From Candidatus Woesearchaeota archaeon (GTDB taxonomy: Archaea > Nanobdellota > Nanobdellia > Pacearchaeales > GW2011-AR1), in assembly GCA_964514585.1 (NCBI GenBank), contig CAZETU010000003.1:80813-144812 (forward strand): a stretch of DNA of 64,000 bases, in the 5' to 3' direction. A program made the position numbers and the translations under genes. Positions within the stretch are counted from its first letter, which is position 1. Every line of letters begins with the position of its first letter. Under the pieces are notes generated by a model that had not been told where the DNA came from, ran no database searches, and worked only from the letters and a program-made list of their open reading frames with translations. Of the stretch, positions 7,506 to 45,130 are shown in pieces.

Positions 7506-7628
7506 CGCCCCAACCGGAGTCGAGACCTTTTTGGCATCTCTTAGGGACTGCGTTTAAATATCGAATATTTTTATTTATTGTTGAATTAGTGACGCTGTTG
7601 AACTTTTTAAGTATTGTCGAGGTTGAGT
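7506..7628 (+). repeat. Core-plus-promoter element E5 (CGCCCCAACCGG ... TAAGTATTGTCG)
   Basis: Core at 7506-7517. 7590-7628 matches 16263-16301 at 37/39 nt. The 16-mer ACGCCCCAACCGGAGT is shared with 19116-19131. Confidence 0.8.
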
Positions 7629-7630
7629 GG

Positions 7631-7650
7631 ACCGACAAGATTTATATATA
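7631..7650 (+). promoter_or_regulatory. Archaeal BRE/TATA promoter for the ars-like cluster
   Basis: ACCGACAAGA-TTTATATA, with the ATG at 7671 lying 30 nt after the TATA start. Confidence 0.65.
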
Positions 7651-7670
7651 TTGAAGATTATCAATATGTT

Positions 7671-8129
7671 ATGAAACATAAATATATGATTGGGGGCGTG
7701 GGAATTATAATATTACTACTTATTGTTTTTACAGTGCCCAAATATTTTGCGACGGCTGAGACCATTAATGGGAAGGTTGTCTTTGGAGAGATTAAAAAAG
7801 TTGAAATATACCATTTTCATGCGAATAGACAATGTTATTCATGTAAGACTATTGGAGAATACGCAAAAGAAACAGTAAATATTCACTTCAAAGAAGAACT
7901 TGATTCTAAAATAATAATTTTTGATTCAATAAATATAGATCTCCCGGAGAATAAAGAACTTGCAAGCAAATACGAAGCAAAGGGTTCTTCGTTGATTATT
8001 GGAACCTATTACAAGGATGGGAGCTTTTCAAAAGAAGAGGATACAGCAGTGTGGTACAAAATTGATAATAAAGAAAACTTTGTCTCTTATCTGAAGGGAG
8101 TAATTGAAACAAAGTTTGTTGAGGCATAA
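7671..8129 (+). CDS. arsF: ArsF-family thioredoxin-like protein with N-terminal membrane anchor
   Basis: HFHANRQCYSC CxxC motif and N-terminal hydrophobic helix. ATG 7671 is preferred over the ORF-track start 7614. Confidence 0.7.
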   Translation: MKHKYMIGGVGIIILLLIVFTVPKYFATAETINGKVVFGEIKKVEIYHFHANRQCYSCKTIGEYAKETVNIHFKEELDSKIIIFDSINIDLPENKELASKYEAKGSSLIIGTYYKDGSFSKEEDTAVWYKIDNKENFVSYLKGVIETKFVEA

Positions 8130-14024: not shown

Positions 14025-14096
14025 ATGAGTTTTTTAAAATTACGCCCTTCAACTTCTCAAAAAAATAATAAAACAGCGTCGATAAAACTTCAAAAA

Positions 14097-14229
14097 CGTC
14101 CCAACCGGGGCTACTGGAGAGTGTCTGGGTTTCATGGGTGCTGGGATCCTTTTTCGTTTAGTTTAGATATCATTCGTGAGTGTGCGATGGAAGGATTTTA
14201 TAAATCTTGTCGGTCTACTTGTGGGTGAC
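14097..14229 (+). repeat. Core-plus-promoter element E1
   Basis: CGTCCCAACCGGGG core; 14113-14161 is identical (49 bp) to 15017-15065; ends TTATAAATCTTGTCGGTCTAC. Confidence 0.85.
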
Positions 14230-14315
14230 AGATTAATAGATTTTAGGGAAGAATTATGTTTTTAGTTTGATGGTGTTCTGCTATTAGTTACTTTCACTGT
14301 AATGAACATGACCCT

Positions 14316-14876
14316 TTACGTTAATTTTAAATCAGAGATAAAATCTTCATCTATTTTTAACGTTTTTGATGCAACTTTTTTAAGATGGTAAGATATGGAT
14401 CCCTGGTTGCCAATAGCGACATATATAACTTCTCTGTTGAATTTTTCAATGGATGCTTTTACCGCACCTGAGAAATCTCCGTCATTTGATATCAAGTATG
14501 CTTTATCATAATTTTCTGCTTGAGCGTCCAAAGCCAAGTCAAGTGCAAGATTGACATCTGTTGCTTTTTCTACGTAAAATATTTTTCCATCCTTTTTGTG
14601 TTTTTCCAATCTTCCGAAAATTATTTTTAATTTATTTATTTTCTTTAGTTTTTCAAAGAATTTTTGCTGTTCTGCATACATTTTTGGGTTGCTCTCCCCG
14701 ACAGGTGCTATGTAATAATTGATTTGTATTAAATTATTCATTGCTGAAATTTTCTTGCAAAAATCTTCAATATTAACCTTGCAATGGAATGTGTTTTTTA
14801 TAGAAAAATAGAAATTACTTCCATCGATATAAATAATTGCTCCTTTCTTGCCAGAATTCATTTTATGAAAAATCAT
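14316..14876 (-). CDS. NYN (LabA/DUF88, PIN-fold) domain protein
   Basis: IYIDGSNFY, EKATDVNLALD, LISNDGDF. Confidence 0.9.
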   Translation of the reverse strand: MIFHKMNSGKKGAIIYIDGSNFYFSIKNTFHCKVNIEDFCKKISAMNNLIQINYYIAPVGESNPKMYAEQQKFFEKLKKINKLKIIFGRLEKHKKDGKIFYVEKATDVNLALDLALDAQAENYDKAYLISNDGDFSGAVKASIEKFNREVIYVAIGNQGSISYHLKKVASKTLKIDEDFISDLKLT

Positions 14877-14997
14877 GGGGTTAGTCGCCTATCCCCATGG
14901 TGTTAATTATTATTAATAGTAGATCGGGATTTATAAGGTTTGTCATTGGCATTCAACGCCCGGATTTTGAGAAAATGTAAAACAGCGATGGTATAAT

Positions 14998-15072
14998 TCA
15001 CGCCCCAACCGGCGTGACTGGAGAGTGTCTGGGTTTCATGGGTGCTGGGATCCTTTTTCGTTTAGATATCAT
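14998..15072 (-). CDS. Putative leaderless 24-aa micro-ORF (MISKRKRIPAPMKPRHSPVTPVGA) inside element E2
   Basis: ATG lies ~32 nt downstream of a minus-strand BRE/TATA (ACCGACAAGACTTATATA). The paralogous frame in E1 is broken by a 5-nt duplication. Confidence 0.3.
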   Translation of the reverse strand: MISKRKRIPAPMKPRHSPVTPVGA

Positions 15073-15130
15073 TCGATTTGTCGTTGCTGATTAAGATATA
15101 TAAGTCTTGTCGGTCTATTTGAGGGTGACG
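15001..15130 (+). repeat. Core-plus-promoter element E2
   Basis: CGCCCCAACCGG core; 49 bp identical to E1; ends TATATAAGTCTTGTCGGTCTA. Confidence 0.85.
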
Positions 15131-15177
15131 AATGGATGATCCCAAACTCTTAAATAATATTTAAATAGAAAAGTTAT

Positions 15178-15489
15178 ATGGCTTATGTTGTTTATGGAAC
15201 AGAAACATTTGAAAAAGAGTTTGAGAAACTAGGAAATGATTATCGAGATCCCATCAAGAAGATTTTTTTACAATTGAAAGAAAATCCCTACGTAGGTGAT
15301 TCTATAAGATATAGATTTTTTAGAGAAAAGAGGATAAAAGAAAAGCGAATTTATTATATTATTTATGAAGAATTTTCTTCTGTTCTTGTTGTCGCAGTTG
15401 GTGGCAAAAAAGCACAAAAAGGTACAATTGACGAAATAATAAAGTTACTTCCTGAATTTAAAATTTATATGAAAGAATTATTAAGCTAA
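15178..15489 (+). CDS. RelE/ParE-family toxin
   Basis: LKENPYVGDSIRYRFFREKRIKEKRIYYII..VLVVAVGGKKAQK; 103 aa. Confidence 0.75.
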   Translation: MAYVVYGTETFEKEFEKLGNDYRDPIKKIFLQLKENPYVGDSIRYRFFREKRIKEKRIYYIIYEEFSSVLVVAVGGKKAQKGTIDEIIKLLPEFKIYMKELLS

Positions 15490-15687
15490 TTTTCTTACTT
15501 TCTTAGATTTCAAGTCAAGCAAACTTTTTTCAAATTGCCCAATTAAATCTGTATTCATTTTCTTTATTACAATCATTCCATTTAAGTTTTCCATTCCGAC
15601 AATCGAACCTTCATTTAAATCTAGTTCTTGCCTAATTGTTTGAGGTATTACGAGTTGTCCTCTTGAACTTATTTTTGACATTTCCAT
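15481..15687 (-). CDS. AbrB/MazE/SpoVT-family DNA-binding antitoxin
   Basis: SKISSRGQLVIPQTIRQELDLNEGS..IVIKK. ATG 15687 follows a minus-strand BRE/TATA at ~15708-15727. Confidence 0.85.
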   Translation of the reverse strand: MEMSKISSRGQLVIPQTIRQELDLNEGSIVGMENLNGMIVIKKMNTDLIGQFEKSLLDLKSKKVRKLA

Positions 15688-15903
15688 ATAAGAAAGTAAG
15701 ATTATCTTATTTATAAGGTTTTTGGTTTTCCCTGGATATCTCTGGGATTCCATTTTTTACAGATTCTTTCCACAAAAGATATCGTTCTTCATGATTATAT
15801 GGATCAACTTTCATTAATTTTAGAAGGATATACAAATAAAAAGGTCATTGTATAAATGTTGTATATTCGCCCAGCACCCATGAAACCTTAACAGTATTGC
15901 GAA

Positions 15904-16018
15904 CGCCCCAACCGCCCACGACCCCAGTCAAGCATCCTAAGGTGATGTCGTTTGCGTTTGCCTTATGTTAGTTGGTGGCTTTTCTTTTTAAGTCTTGTCG
16001 GTCTACTTTGGGGTTACG
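15904..16018 (+). repeat. Core-plus-promoter element E3
   Basis: CGCCCCAACCG core; 15917-15954 is identical (38 bp) to 25406-25443; ends TAAGTCTTGTCGGTCTAC. Confidence 0.85.
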
Positions 16019-16044
16019 GAATTAGATATAACTATAGCTACGTA

Positions 16045-16172
16045 ATTACCTTTTTCCTTTAGAATCTATTTTATAAAAATCTCCATCGGGGATATTTGCA
16101 TATACCATAGTGTTAATTATTATTAATAATGAGCTGGGGTTTATAGGATTTGTCATCAAATGGTTCAATCCC
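16045..16172 (-). pseudogene. Remnant of the 5' end and promoter of an NYN-gene paralogue
   Basis: 16105-16156 aligns with 14895-14946, and 16049-16082 with the NYN start region at ~14845-14880. Confidence 0.55.
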
Positions 16173-16180
16173 CCAGAATC

Positions 16181-16345
16181 CCCCCACCCCGTAAGCGACC
16201 TTTGTGGCATATTTAATGAGTATCTTTTTTTGTCATTGAATATTTATTTTAGTATGATTTATTGACGCTGTTGGACTTTATAAGTATTGTCGAGGTTGAG
16301 TAGGTAGATTAATTGAATTAGTCTTGTCGGTCTACTTTTGGATGA
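16181..16345 (+). repeat. Degenerate element E6 (paralogue of E5) with a second TCTTGTCGGTCTAC box
   Basis: GACCTTTGTGGCAT resembles 7524-7537; 16263-16301 matches 7590-7628; AGTCTTGTCGGTCTAC at 16320. Confidence 0.65.
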
Positions 16346-16460
16346 TGGATTAAAAATATGGTTGTGTCATGTATATTTAACCCACTTGCTTCAAGATAGA
16401 TTAGGGACTGGAATATTGGCATAGATTAAGATCGATAGGCTTGAAAACTATTTATTCATC

Positions 16461-17894: not shown

Positions 17895-19022
17895 ATGGAA
17901 AAGAAAGATGTCTATAAACATAAAGAACGGTATCTTAAATGGATGGAAGAAAATCTCAATGGGATAAAGAATATCTCAGTTATTAATTCTTCACTGATTC
18001 TAAGCTATCTCTCAGATATGCAAAAAGGTCTAAACATCTCAGCTAAATCTAAAAAAGGGGCAAGGAGTTATACAAGATTGAATAATATCAGACAAAGAAT
18101 GATTTTTTTAATAAAGAAATTTGAGGCTATTTATAATTTAGAGGAGGTCTCAAGAATTGAAGAAGAACAACTACATGATTTTTTTAATAAAATAAGGAAT
18201 GGGACATTAAAAAGGGTGGATGGAAAAGTATATCAGGATCCTGTAAACTTTGTAAAGATTTTCAAAGCGTTTTGGCATTGGCATCAAAAAGTCAATAGAA
18301 AGAAGGGAGTTAATATTGATGATATAACTATTGACCTTGACACGAGTGTAGAGAAGCCAAAATGGGTTTACCTAACTGAAGAACAAATTATGACGTTATG
18401 TAAAAGAGCTCCCTTTGAGTATAAAGTTTTAATAACATTTCTTTATGATGCAGGCGTAAGAGCTCCGGGAGAATTATTAAATCTAAAGATTTCAGATTTC
18501 TATAACGATTTCAAGGAAGTTCACATCAGAGATGAAATAAGTAAGACATTTGGAAGACGGATTAAATTAATGTTCTGTTCAAAACTCGTTAAAGAATATG
18601 TAAACAAAAGAGGACTCTCAAAAGAAGACTATATTTTCTCTATGAGCCCATTTACGATTAATCACAATCTTCAAAAATTAGCAGAAAAGACATTAGGAAC
18701 TGAAAGAAGCTTAGCAGGTCAAAAATATTCAGAACTTACAATGTATGATTTTAGGCATTGCTCTTGCTGTTATTGGCTTCCAAAATATAAATCGGAATCT
18801 GGATTAAAATATCGCTTCGGGTGGAAGAAATCTGAAAGAATATATTACTATTCTGAAATGCTGGGTATGCAGGATACAATATCTGATGAAGATTTATTGC
18901 AAGATACTAGTAGCATGTTATTCAAAAGCAAGGTAAATAAAATTTACATAGATAATAAACTACAAGAATCCAGATTAGATTTTCTTGAGGAAAAAATTAA
19001 GAAACTTACTCAAGAAGAGTAA
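17895..19022 (+). CDS. Tyrosine recombinase/integrase (paralogue 1)
   Basis: YDAGVRAPGEL (catalytic R), SKT, YDFRH, RFGW..IYYYS (catalytic Y). Confidence 0.9.
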   Translation: MEKKDVYKHKERYLKWMEENLNGIKNISVINSSLILSYLSDMQKGLNISAKSKKGARSYTRLNNIRQRMIFLIKKFEAIYNLEEVSRIEEEQLHDFFNKIRNGTLKRVDGKVYQDPVNFVKIFKAFWHWHQKVNRKKGVNIDDITIDLDTSVEKPKWVYLTEEQIMTLCKRAPFEYKVLITFLYDAGVRAPGELLNLKISDFYNDFKEVHIRDEISKTFGRRIKLMFCSKLVKEYVNKRGLSKEDYIFSMSPFTINHNLQKLAEKTLGTERSLAGQKYSELTMYDFRHCSCCYWLPKYKSESGLKYRFGWKKSERIYYYSEMLGMQDTISDEDLLQDTSSMLFKSKVNKIYIDNKLQESRLDFLEEKIKKLTQEE

Positions 19023-19095
19023 ACTTATACGGGTCTTGCTTAACGCCCGAGAAATTTATCAATCCCTTCATTCGATAAAAATAGAAAATATACAA

Positions 19096-19131
19096 CGCCC
19101 CGTCTGGGTATTGCCACGCCCCAACCGGAGT
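19096..19131 (+). repeat. Core copy just downstream of integrase 1 (CGCCCC...CGCCCCAACCGGAGT)
   Basis: Core at 19117-19128, preceded by CGCCCCGTCTGGG at 19096. Confidence 0.8.
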
Positions 19132-25323: not shown

Positions 25324-25393
25324 ATTTTTTAAGAAAAGGTAGGTTTGGAAATAATATGTTTTATCGACGCTAATGGCGCAACTCCCCTGATCT

Positions 25394-25507
25394 GCCCCAA
25401 CCGCGCACGACCCCAGTCAAGCATCCTAAGGTGATGTCGTTTGTGTTTGCTTTATACTGATTGGGGGATTTTCTTTATAAGTCTTGTCGACCACTAGATG
25501 GTGACGG
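25394..25507 (+). repeat. Core-plus-promoter element E4
   Basis: GCCCCAACCG core; 38 bp identical to E3; ends TTATAAGTCTTGTCGAC. Confidence 0.85.
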
Positions 25508-43606: not shown

Positions 43607-44755
43607 TCAACTAACAACCCCTTCAATCTGACTAGCTAATTTTTCAAATTTAGCCATATTTATTTCCATTAATTCCATTCTTTCTTGCAAGATTTCATTT
43701 TGTCTTTTTGTTGAATTCAACTCTTTTTCTAATTCTGTTTTAGTCGTGTCTATTAGCATATCCTCTTCTGAAATCGTATCCCTCATTCCTAATAGTTCGC
43801 TGTAATAATGTATTTTATCGCTTTTTTTCCAACCGAATCTATATTTAAGAGCTGATTCACTTTTATAACGAGGCATCCAATAGCAACAAGCACAATGCCT
43901 AAAATCATACATGGTTAGATTGCAGTACTTTTCTCCTGCAGGAGAAACTCCTTCTCCAAAAAGTTTCCTAGCTGTGTTTTTTATAACTCTATTTACATTA
44001 TATGGCTTAAATGTAAATAAATAATCATGAAGCTCCAGTTTTTCTTCCCTAATATATCGTTTGATTAGGTCAGAAGATAACATTAACTTTATTCTTCTAC
44101 CAAAAGTTTTACTTATCTCATCTCTTATGTGAACTTCCTTAAAGTCGTTATGAAGGTCTGAAATTTTAATATTAATTAATTCGGTCGGGGCTCTAATTCC
44201 AGTATCAAACAAAAACATAATCATCGTCCTATATTTGAAAGTGGATTTATCGCAAAAACTTCTAACCTGATCTTCTGTTAAATATACCCATTTTGGTTTA
44301 TCCCGTCTAACGTCTAAATCGATTGTGATATCTTCAACGGTGACACCTTCTTTTCTATTCACTTTAATCCACCAATGCCAAAATGATTTGAAGGCTTTCC
44401 CATAAGTGTCTATTGAGGCATAGATTTTACCATCTTCCCTAGAGACTTCCCCTGTTCTAATTTTGGAAAAGAATACTATGATTTGATCCTCAGTTATTTT
44501 GGTAATATCATCAAGTCCAAATTCATCTTTAAACCTTTTAGAGAAAAATATCATTTTTTGTCTCAATGTGTTCAATCTAATAAAACTTCTCGGACCTTTT
44601 GAACTTCTTGAAGAAACATTTCTCCCGACCTCCATGTCTCCGACATATCTTAAAGTTAAATCAGAATTTACTTTACTAATCCCTGGAACGCCGTCTTTTA
44701 CTGCTATTTTCCAAGCATGGTATTTTTCCTTGTGTTTGTATGGATCTCTTTTCAT
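43607..44755 (-). CDS. Tyrosine recombinase/integrase (paralogue 2)
   Basis: FDTGIRAPTEL, SKT, YDFRH, RFGW..IHYYS; visibly homologous to 17895-19022 throughout. Confidence 0.9.
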   Translation of the reverse strand: MKRDPYKHKEKYHAWKIAVKDGVPGISKVNSDLTLRYVGDMEVGRNVSSRSSKGPRSFIRLNTLRQKMIFFSKRFKDEFGLDDITKITEDQIIVFFSKIRTGEVSREDGKIYASIDTYGKAFKSFWHWWIKVNRKEGVTVEDITIDLDVRRDKPKWVYLTEDQVRSFCDKSTFKYRTMIMFLFDTGIRAPTELINIKISDLHNDFKEVHIRDEISKTFGRRIKLMLSSDLIKRYIREEKLELHDYLFTFKPYNVNRVIKNTARKLFGEGVSPAGEKYCNLTMYDFRHCACCYWMPRYKSESALKYRFGWKKSDKIHYYSELLGMRDTISEEDMLIDTTKTELEKELNSTKRQNEILQERMELMEINMAKFEKLASQIEGVVS

Positions 44756-44891
44756 TGTCTGAAAAGCAAACACTATTTATTAACATCGAGGTTTTGCACA
44801 GGTACCTTATGGGTATCTTACAGGTGTCGTTTAGAAGTCAGAGTTTTGTTTTTCCGCTTGAAAGCTCATCGATTATGCTCCAAGTGGGTTA

Positions 44892-44909
44892 CGCCCCAAC
44901 CGGGGGCTA
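44892..44909 (+). repeat. Core copy upstream of integrase 2 (CGCCCCAACCGGGGGCTA)
   Basis: Matches the E1 core CGTCCCAACCGGGGCTA; 137 bp from the integrase ATG. Confidence 0.8.
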
Positions 44910-44917
44910 ATGGGGAT

Positions 44918-45064
44918 TTAACTTCCCTCTATAATCATTCCGACAGAAAGAAACAATACGAGAAATGATCCAATAGCTACTGGAATATTAAAACTGTCAA
45001 ACAAGGCATAAATTAAAGCTATTGCTGACAAAACTGCTGTGATTTTCGGACTTATCTTCGCCAT
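44918..45064 (-). CDS. 48-aa two-TM micro-protein (MAKISPKITAVLSAIALIYALF...)
   Basis: Read by hand; ATG 45064, TAA 44918. Confidence 0.5.
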   Translation of the reverse strand: MAKISPKITAVLSAIALIYALFDSFNIPVAIGSFLVLFLSVGMIIEGS

Positions 45065-45130
45065 TAATATAACAATGAATCAAACCTTAAAAATGTTTAG
45101 GAACCAACTAATGGTGGGGTAATTTAATCC

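Follow-up and report, generated by a model that had tools for sequence, protein, structure and literature searches.

What are the twin elements of about 130 bp, E1 (14097-14232) and E2 (15001-15132), that bracket an NYN-domain gene (14316-14876, minus strand) in the 64-kb window analysed here, that is, in the whole stretch of DNA under study? A preliminary description had read them as cassettes with a promoter that fires through an attachment (att) core, or as genes for a small RNA or a 24-aa leaderless peptide. Here, we propose that E1 and E2 are likely to be the integrase-distal arms of two degenerate, integrase-less units, stacked with tRNA-Asp 3'-end elements of Pacearchaeota, and that they probably have no function beyond that of att arms.

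Both elements are real, and their outline is largely as first described. The 49 identical bases (14113-14161 = 15017-15065) sit within a 66-nt match at 94%, and a second conserved block is common to the right ends of E1 and E2. On the minus strand we recovered the claimed BRE/TATA, with TATA hexamers at 14199-14204 and 15099-15104 and BRE-like stretches at 14205-14214 and 15105-15114, as well as an ATG at leaderless distance (at 14173 in E1 and 15072 in E2, 25 and 26 nt after the respective hexamer). Together with a conserved GTCACC further upstream (14224-14229 and 15124-15129), these make up promoter blocks of 14199-14229 and 15099-15129. Chance is excluded by the counts in the window: an 18-mer within the E1/E2 body occurs 3 times (0.02 expected), the 13-mer promoter block 5 times (0.78 expected), and the 11-bp core 8 times (0.07 expected), always on the plus strand.

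The identity of the core answers the first part of the question. On the minus strand it reads as the 3'-terminal 11 nt of tRNA-Asp(GTC), matched exactly in E2 (15001-15011) and with one mismatch in E1 (14097-14107). Loci from Pacearchaeota/Nanoarchaeota metagenome-assembled genomes (MAGs) were gathered by a search with the integrase at 43607-44773, and in one of them (L034) ARAGORN finds a canonical tRNA-Asp(GTC) that ends in the core, with an integrase 87% identical to 43607-44773 about 120 nt downstream. A tRNA-Asp(GTC) is present in 38 of the 48 other genomes of the same genus. In each of the 29 tRNA-Asp copies examined, the 3' end is the core or differs from it by one base, and in many an integrase start follows directly. 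The att-core reading of the preliminary description is therefore right, and what had looked like a constant 3' handle is the tRNA-Asp tail carried by every att copy.

This bears directly on the idea that E1 and E2 encode non-coding RNAs of about 75 nt with a constant, tRNA-like 3' handle. A credible promoter is indeed followed, after 75-90 nt, by a conserved 3' sequence and T runs, but the handle is found at every att site whatever the type of body, and the conservation pattern is that of two gene ends plus att-site blocks. The putative E1 and E2 transcripts fold no better than shuffled sequences (z +0.46 to +1.06), and Rfam gives no match in the window at the gathering threshold, or in three relatives even at E <= 1. 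With the handle accounted for as the 3' end of tRNA-Asp and no support from folding or Rfam, we regard such RNAs as extremely improbable. We also considered and rejected E1 and E2 as tRNA-like genes: in some relatives the core-adjacent region looks like a diverged piece of a T-arm, but the 5' strand of an acceptor stem is lacking.

ARAGORN detected no tRNA in the window, and the source assembly (89.65% complete) contains no tRNA-Asp; the target tRNA expected at the end of the stack is not encountered in this genome. An intact target tRNA does stand at the end of the stack in four relatives (G015, G025, G031 and G013). In the window, the last core (44892-44902) abuts the 3' end of a 49-codon, membrane-like minus-strand ORF and not a tRNA (44892-45066). 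There, 14 nt are identical to the tRNA-Asp tail, and a shifted 10/11 match to the T-loop region comes next, possibly a degenerate tRNA remnant. A comparison of the flanks of the stack with the tRNA-Asp flanks of relatives revealed no synteny.

If the core is a tRNA tail, what is the body between core and promoter? Of 36 genomes sampled from the genus, 14 contain related arms, and 24 genomes from other genera of the order contain none. A strict pattern scan of genome contigs returned one locus, and a looser metagenome scan took its place. Some relatives have about 250 extra nt separating the promoter block from the E1-like left part, and these complete a minus-strand ORF of 86 aa with two CxxC pairs and a CPFC motif. 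The predicted zinc-ribbon protein has 31 database members (P0001-P0031), mostly of 86-95 aa and some labelled Pacearchaeota. Judged by its conserved cysteines (alignment A1) and its dN/dS of 0.09-0.17 (78 codons), this is a real gene family. Searches of Pfam, NCBIfam and PHROGs returned only generic zinc-ribbon matches below cut-off, and an AlphaFold model of the protein (pLDDT 77) had no Foldseek match in the PDB at E <= 0.001. In G007, G015, G021, G025 and GCA_018670775 the intact gene (86-92 aa) is flanked by the same promoter on one side and a core on the other, and its stop codon is 22-24 nt from the core in 5/5 intact copies examined.

E1 and E2 are homologous to these full-length genes in two stretches, one running from the promoter to the start codon and the other from the last ~12 codons through the core; about 220 nt of the middle of the gene are missing from both (alignment A2). 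Read from this alignment, the E1/E2 body is the remnant of a zinc-ribbon gene whose middle has been deleted. In E1 the start, the last ~12 codons and the stop have stayed in frame, giving a remnant ORF of 13 codons plus stop (14132-14173, minus strand). Both elements share with the family a homologous promoter, a start codon and a 3' end at the matching distance from the core; since neither has an intact ORF with CxxC pairs (E1 having 13 codons and E2 being frameshifted), they are remnants of the family and not members of it. Using tblastn, no full-length copy of the zinc-ribbon gene was found in the source genome. The same promoter block also precedes unrelated small ORFs that start MKTA(K/T)LTK (G021:C59:2344-2374, which is locus L117, and G011:C7), and one arm class, of 18 codons, looks like this N-terminus fused to a zinc-ribbon tail.

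What, then, of the 24-aa peptide? The ORF exists in E2 (14998-15072, minus strand, 24 codons), running from 15072 to 14998 through the core to a stop just past it, but it is a frameshift product confined to E2, with no counterpart elsewhere. It arose because E2 lost one copy of a 5-nt repeat (15061-15065). The preliminary description had the polarity of this change reversed, attributing a 5-nt duplication to E1: a doubled TAAAC, or a close variant, is present in every E1/E2-type relative examined, and on this comparison the doubled TAAAC of E1 is the ancestral form. We reject the leaderless peptide on these grounds, as it is unique to E2 and not conserved. The check that had been suggested, a search for homologues and a comparison of codon-level with structural conservation, did yield homologues, and coding selection is evident on the parent zinc-ribbon gene, but no structure signal was found and the 24-aa frame is not conserved.

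The promoter fares better. Among 632 ORFs of at least 200 aa in the source genome, a TTTAWA box ends 23 nt (106 ORFs) or 21 nt (42 ORFs) before the ATG. Positions near -33/-32 are rich in A and no Shine-Dalgarno signal is present; leaderless transcription is therefore the norm in this genome. Across the genus, the block GTCACC-N11-CGACAAGAYTTATA is found before five intact zinc-ribbon genes, four integrase genes and one further small ORF; in the zinc-ribbon and integrase genes the ATG comes 24-26 nt after the block. The claim of a promoter that points at the core is upheld by this recurrence before intact genes in relatives and by a spacing near that of the genome's own genes, and the BRE/TATA of E1 and E2 is very probably the real promoter of the recombination module. 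By the same reasoning from sequence, it would presumably still fire in E1 and E2. The 14-mer of the promoter, allowing at most 2 mismatches, is not clearly over-represented genome-wide (24 matches against about 16 in shuffles), so its value as evidence lies in position and context and not in its count.

Other arms in the window carry comparable blocks. A second arm type (15904-16020 and 25393-25507; also in G018:C25) has the same promoter block 72 nt from the core, but no start codon follows at the leaderless spacing, and the arm may be non-coding or what is left of another small gene. A third type lies at 7506-7670 and 16180-16350, with a degenerate core near 16180. Two divergently oriented promoter-like blocks lie at 7606-7650, and the rightward one stands at leaderless distance before an ArsF-family gene (7671-8129).

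Would such a promoter express a neighbouring gene, as the preliminary description supposed in comparing each cassette to an integron with a Pc-like promoter that drives the next gene to the left? For E1 this is unlikely: there is no gene downstream, and transcription would run into T5 and T7 runs directly past the core (14040-14096, minus strand), a probable terminator. Over its first ~50 nt, this post-core flank is almost the same as the sequence that follows the intact tRNA-Asp in G009. For E2 the case is mixed, as only T4 runs intervene between its core and NYN, but NYN is preceded, about 26 nt from its ATG, by a TATA-like box of its own, and overall we think it unlikely that the E2 promoter drives this gene. 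The NYN upstream region (14895-14946), which holds the TATA-like box and a hairpin-forming leader, is repeated at 16105-16156 with 81% identity, before a 54-codon minus-strand ORF.

The integron comparison as a whole, with NYN as the gene expressed from E2, draws on cassette-sized units between repeated cores, a promoter pointing across the core, and the lack of anything stronger than T4 runs between the E2 core and NYN. Like integron cassettes, the units are small and promoter-poor, and their recombination sites are of ~60-140 bp with dyad symmetry. Here, however, the core is a tRNA fragment at the centre of the dyad and not an attC, with no R''/L''/L'/R' layout and no IntI-type integrase (against the integron-integrase model TIGR02249, the recombinases reach 23.3 and 21.5 bits, the cut-off being 265), and the cassettes are decayed autonomous elements, complete with integrase stubs. 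Given also that E1 has strong T runs and no gene to drive and that NYN has its own TATA-like box, the comparison fails, and we judge an integron-like platform to be very improbable. A folded, single-stranded attC-like substrate was considered separately and discarded, as the conserved crossover core falls in a loop and not in a stem.

We return to the preferred reading, that of arms from decayed tRNA-targeting elements, for which relatives supply the undecayed form. On contig C6 of G015, tRNA-Asp is followed by an arm, the integrase, some 21 kb of cargo, the promoter, the zinc-ribbon gene and a degenerate core, in that order; past that core there is a 1.5-kb unit with a 28-codon remnant and then another core. 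Contig C1 of G025 has the same order over 35 kb, and wherever it could be checked the zinc-ribbon module lies at the integrase-distal end of elements of 23-35 kb. From the G015 and G025 layouts, the promoter and zinc-ribbon module can be placed at the outward-facing, integrase-distal end of autonomous elements.

The opposite end can be recognised next to E2. On the minus strand, the 190 nt from 15914 to 15725 match, at 82% identity, the G015 junction in which the tRNA tail is followed by the integrase-side arm and the first ~100 nt of the integrase. It comprises a core (15904-15914), an inverted-repeat partner (15870-15887) and an integrase 5' stub (about 15835 to 15725). The partner is the exact reverse complement of the E2 inverted-repeat half-site (15032-15049); the corresponding half-site in E1 (14128-14145), a candidate integrase-binding site, contains the stop codon of the remnant ORF. 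As both ends are present, 15001-15904 is one shrunken element, made up of the E2 arm, a ParE-like gene, a MazE/AbrB-like gene, the integrase stub, an arm and a core. Its neighbour, the 904-bp unit 14097-15001, consists of the E1 arm and its NYN cargo, and NYN is bracketed by E1 and E2 only because the two units lie side by side.

An intact tyrosine integrase adjoins the last core of the stack (gene, arm and core spanning 43607-44902, minus strand). The gene at 43607-44773 matches Pfam Phage_integrase (3e-10) and PHROG integrase (1e-18), and its start is 118 nt from the core at 44892. A second integrase (17895-19127, plus strand) is 52% identical to the first and has its 3' end towards a core (19117-19127). 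This protein of 375 aa has no Pfam match at E <= 0.01, and the orientation of its gene, with the 3' and not the 5' end towards the core, recurs beside tRNA-Asp in G013:C22; the reversed layout may represent a second element architecture. Elsewhere in the source genome, contig C16 (3.5 kb) carries three tandem tyrosine-recombinase genes on one strand, and contig C9 has another integrase beside a partial tRNA at the contig end, which belongs to a different target system.

How does this arrangement compare with known systems? As in CIME-like tRNA accretion and in archaeal type II (lambda-like, pNOB8-type) elements, each unit is delimited by direct repeats of a tRNA 3' end, units are stacked at one site, and an intact tyrosine integrase adjoins one of the repeats. 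As in CIMEs, small units keep both arms and have lost the integrase. The integrases carry the YxxR signature, which has been assigned to the pNOB8-type subfamily in a review that notes tandem integration in archaea and does not mention DPANN or Pacearchaeota (PMC8371274). What differs is the host (DPANN/Pacearchaeota), the size of the units (only 0.7-0.9 kb), the dedicated promoter and small zinc-ribbon gene in the distal arm, and the lack of a tRNA-Asp at the stack in this assembly.

For the outward promoter, the closest parallels are bacterial. Both Pcirc of ICEclc (PMC5812530) and the 3'-end promoter of ICEKp1 (PMC13023037) make integrase transcription dependent on the state of the element, since excision fuses the far-end promoter upstream of int; in integrated ICEKp1 the integrase sits behind a tRNA promoter (PMC13023037). 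The elements described here likewise have an outward promoter at the integrase-distal end, which excision would put upstream of int across the joined att site, and, as in ICEKp1, the integrase lies directly downstream of a tRNA gene. The likeness is one of anatomy alone, and here the promoters are archaeal and leaderless, with a small protein gene or its remnant between promoter and att core. For the zinc-ribbon gene, a comparison by possible role and not by sequence homology can be made with SNJ2, where the accessory genes Orf2 and Orf3 are co-transcribed with int and promote integration (PMC5861418); in both cases an archaeal, tRNA-targeting tyrosine integrase is accompanied by small accessory genes, with the zinc-ribbon gene as a putative one. 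Unlike in SNJ2, the att core separates the zinc-ribbon gene from int, so that the two could be co-transcribed only in a circle or across a tandem junction.

Taken together, these features suggest the following scheme. An intact distal arm comprises a leaderless promoter, a zinc-ribbon gene of 86-92 aa, a half-site overlapping its stop codon and, 22-24 nt further on, the core. In E1 and E2 the middle of the gene has been deleted and the promoter, the start, the last ~12 codons, the half-site and the core remain, and this retained part is plausibly what recombination needs in cis. Were the promoter still to fire, it would produce a short transcript ending at the T runs past the core, clearly so in E1 and more weakly in E2. 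In an excised circle or at a tandem junction, the outward promoter would read across the core into int, and by analogy we infer a mode of action like that of ICEclc Pcirc. No T5 run is present in the integrase-side arm ahead of 43607-44773, so that read-through into int would be possible in either state.

One observation runs against simple decay. The internal deletions in these arms fall into seven classes (of 13, 13, 17, 18, 20/27, 28 and 32 codons), and in 7/7 the start codon is in frame with the conserved tail, for which the chance is (1/3)^7, or ~0.0005, although the classes may not be fully independent. Such retention in all deletion classes is not predicted by pure decay. Could the mini-ORFs be under selection, either for a short functional peptide made of the zinc-ribbon tail or for an attenuator-like control by translation of read-through into the integrase? 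Beyond the frame count, the other two frames hit a TAA inside the 5-nt motif, ~25 nt before the arm. The matched arms of a site can, moreover, form a very stable hairpin around the core: at L025:1140-1262 (G007:C17) a 21-nt inverted repeat flanks the core, and arm, core and arm folded as RNA give -54 kcal/mol (z -8.3). There is a precedent in ICEKp1, whose int transcripts are attenuated by stem-loops in their 5' UTR (PMC13023037). Yet there is free variation in the residues that separate the conserved motif from the stop, hence little sign that a peptide is under selection, and what is conserved coincides with DNA blocks of the arm. The out-of-frame E2 and an ATG-less copy in G019 both persist, any lack of full independence among the deletion classes would weaken the frame count, and E1 and E2 have no downstream partner repeat and hence no hairpin. 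On balance, we think selection on the mini-ORFs unlikely. The edges of the inverted repeats vary between elements and agree between the two arms of one element.

A more specific version is that leaderless translation of the mini-ORF, across the repeated 5-nt motif and up to its stop inside the arm, would block the core hairpin and so gate read-through from the outward promoter into int in an excised or tandem element. Owing to the strength of the matched-arm hairpin, we keep such translation-coupled control as a low-probability case, and it is an improbable one. If true, it would amount to a translation-coupled switch built into an archaeal attachment site.

In light of E1 and E2 being, as we think likely, arms of decayed elements, an apparent new RNA or peptide locus becomes an ordinary one: twin repeats of this kind in DPANN genomes would be the ends of decayed tRNA-targeting elements. 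In the literature searched, we found no outward promoter combined with a small zinc-ribbon gene abutting an att core. The promoter and zinc-ribbon module may serve as an annotation marker for the ends of such elements, and the zinc-ribbon protein would be a candidate accessory factor for recombination in archaea that lack a genetic system.
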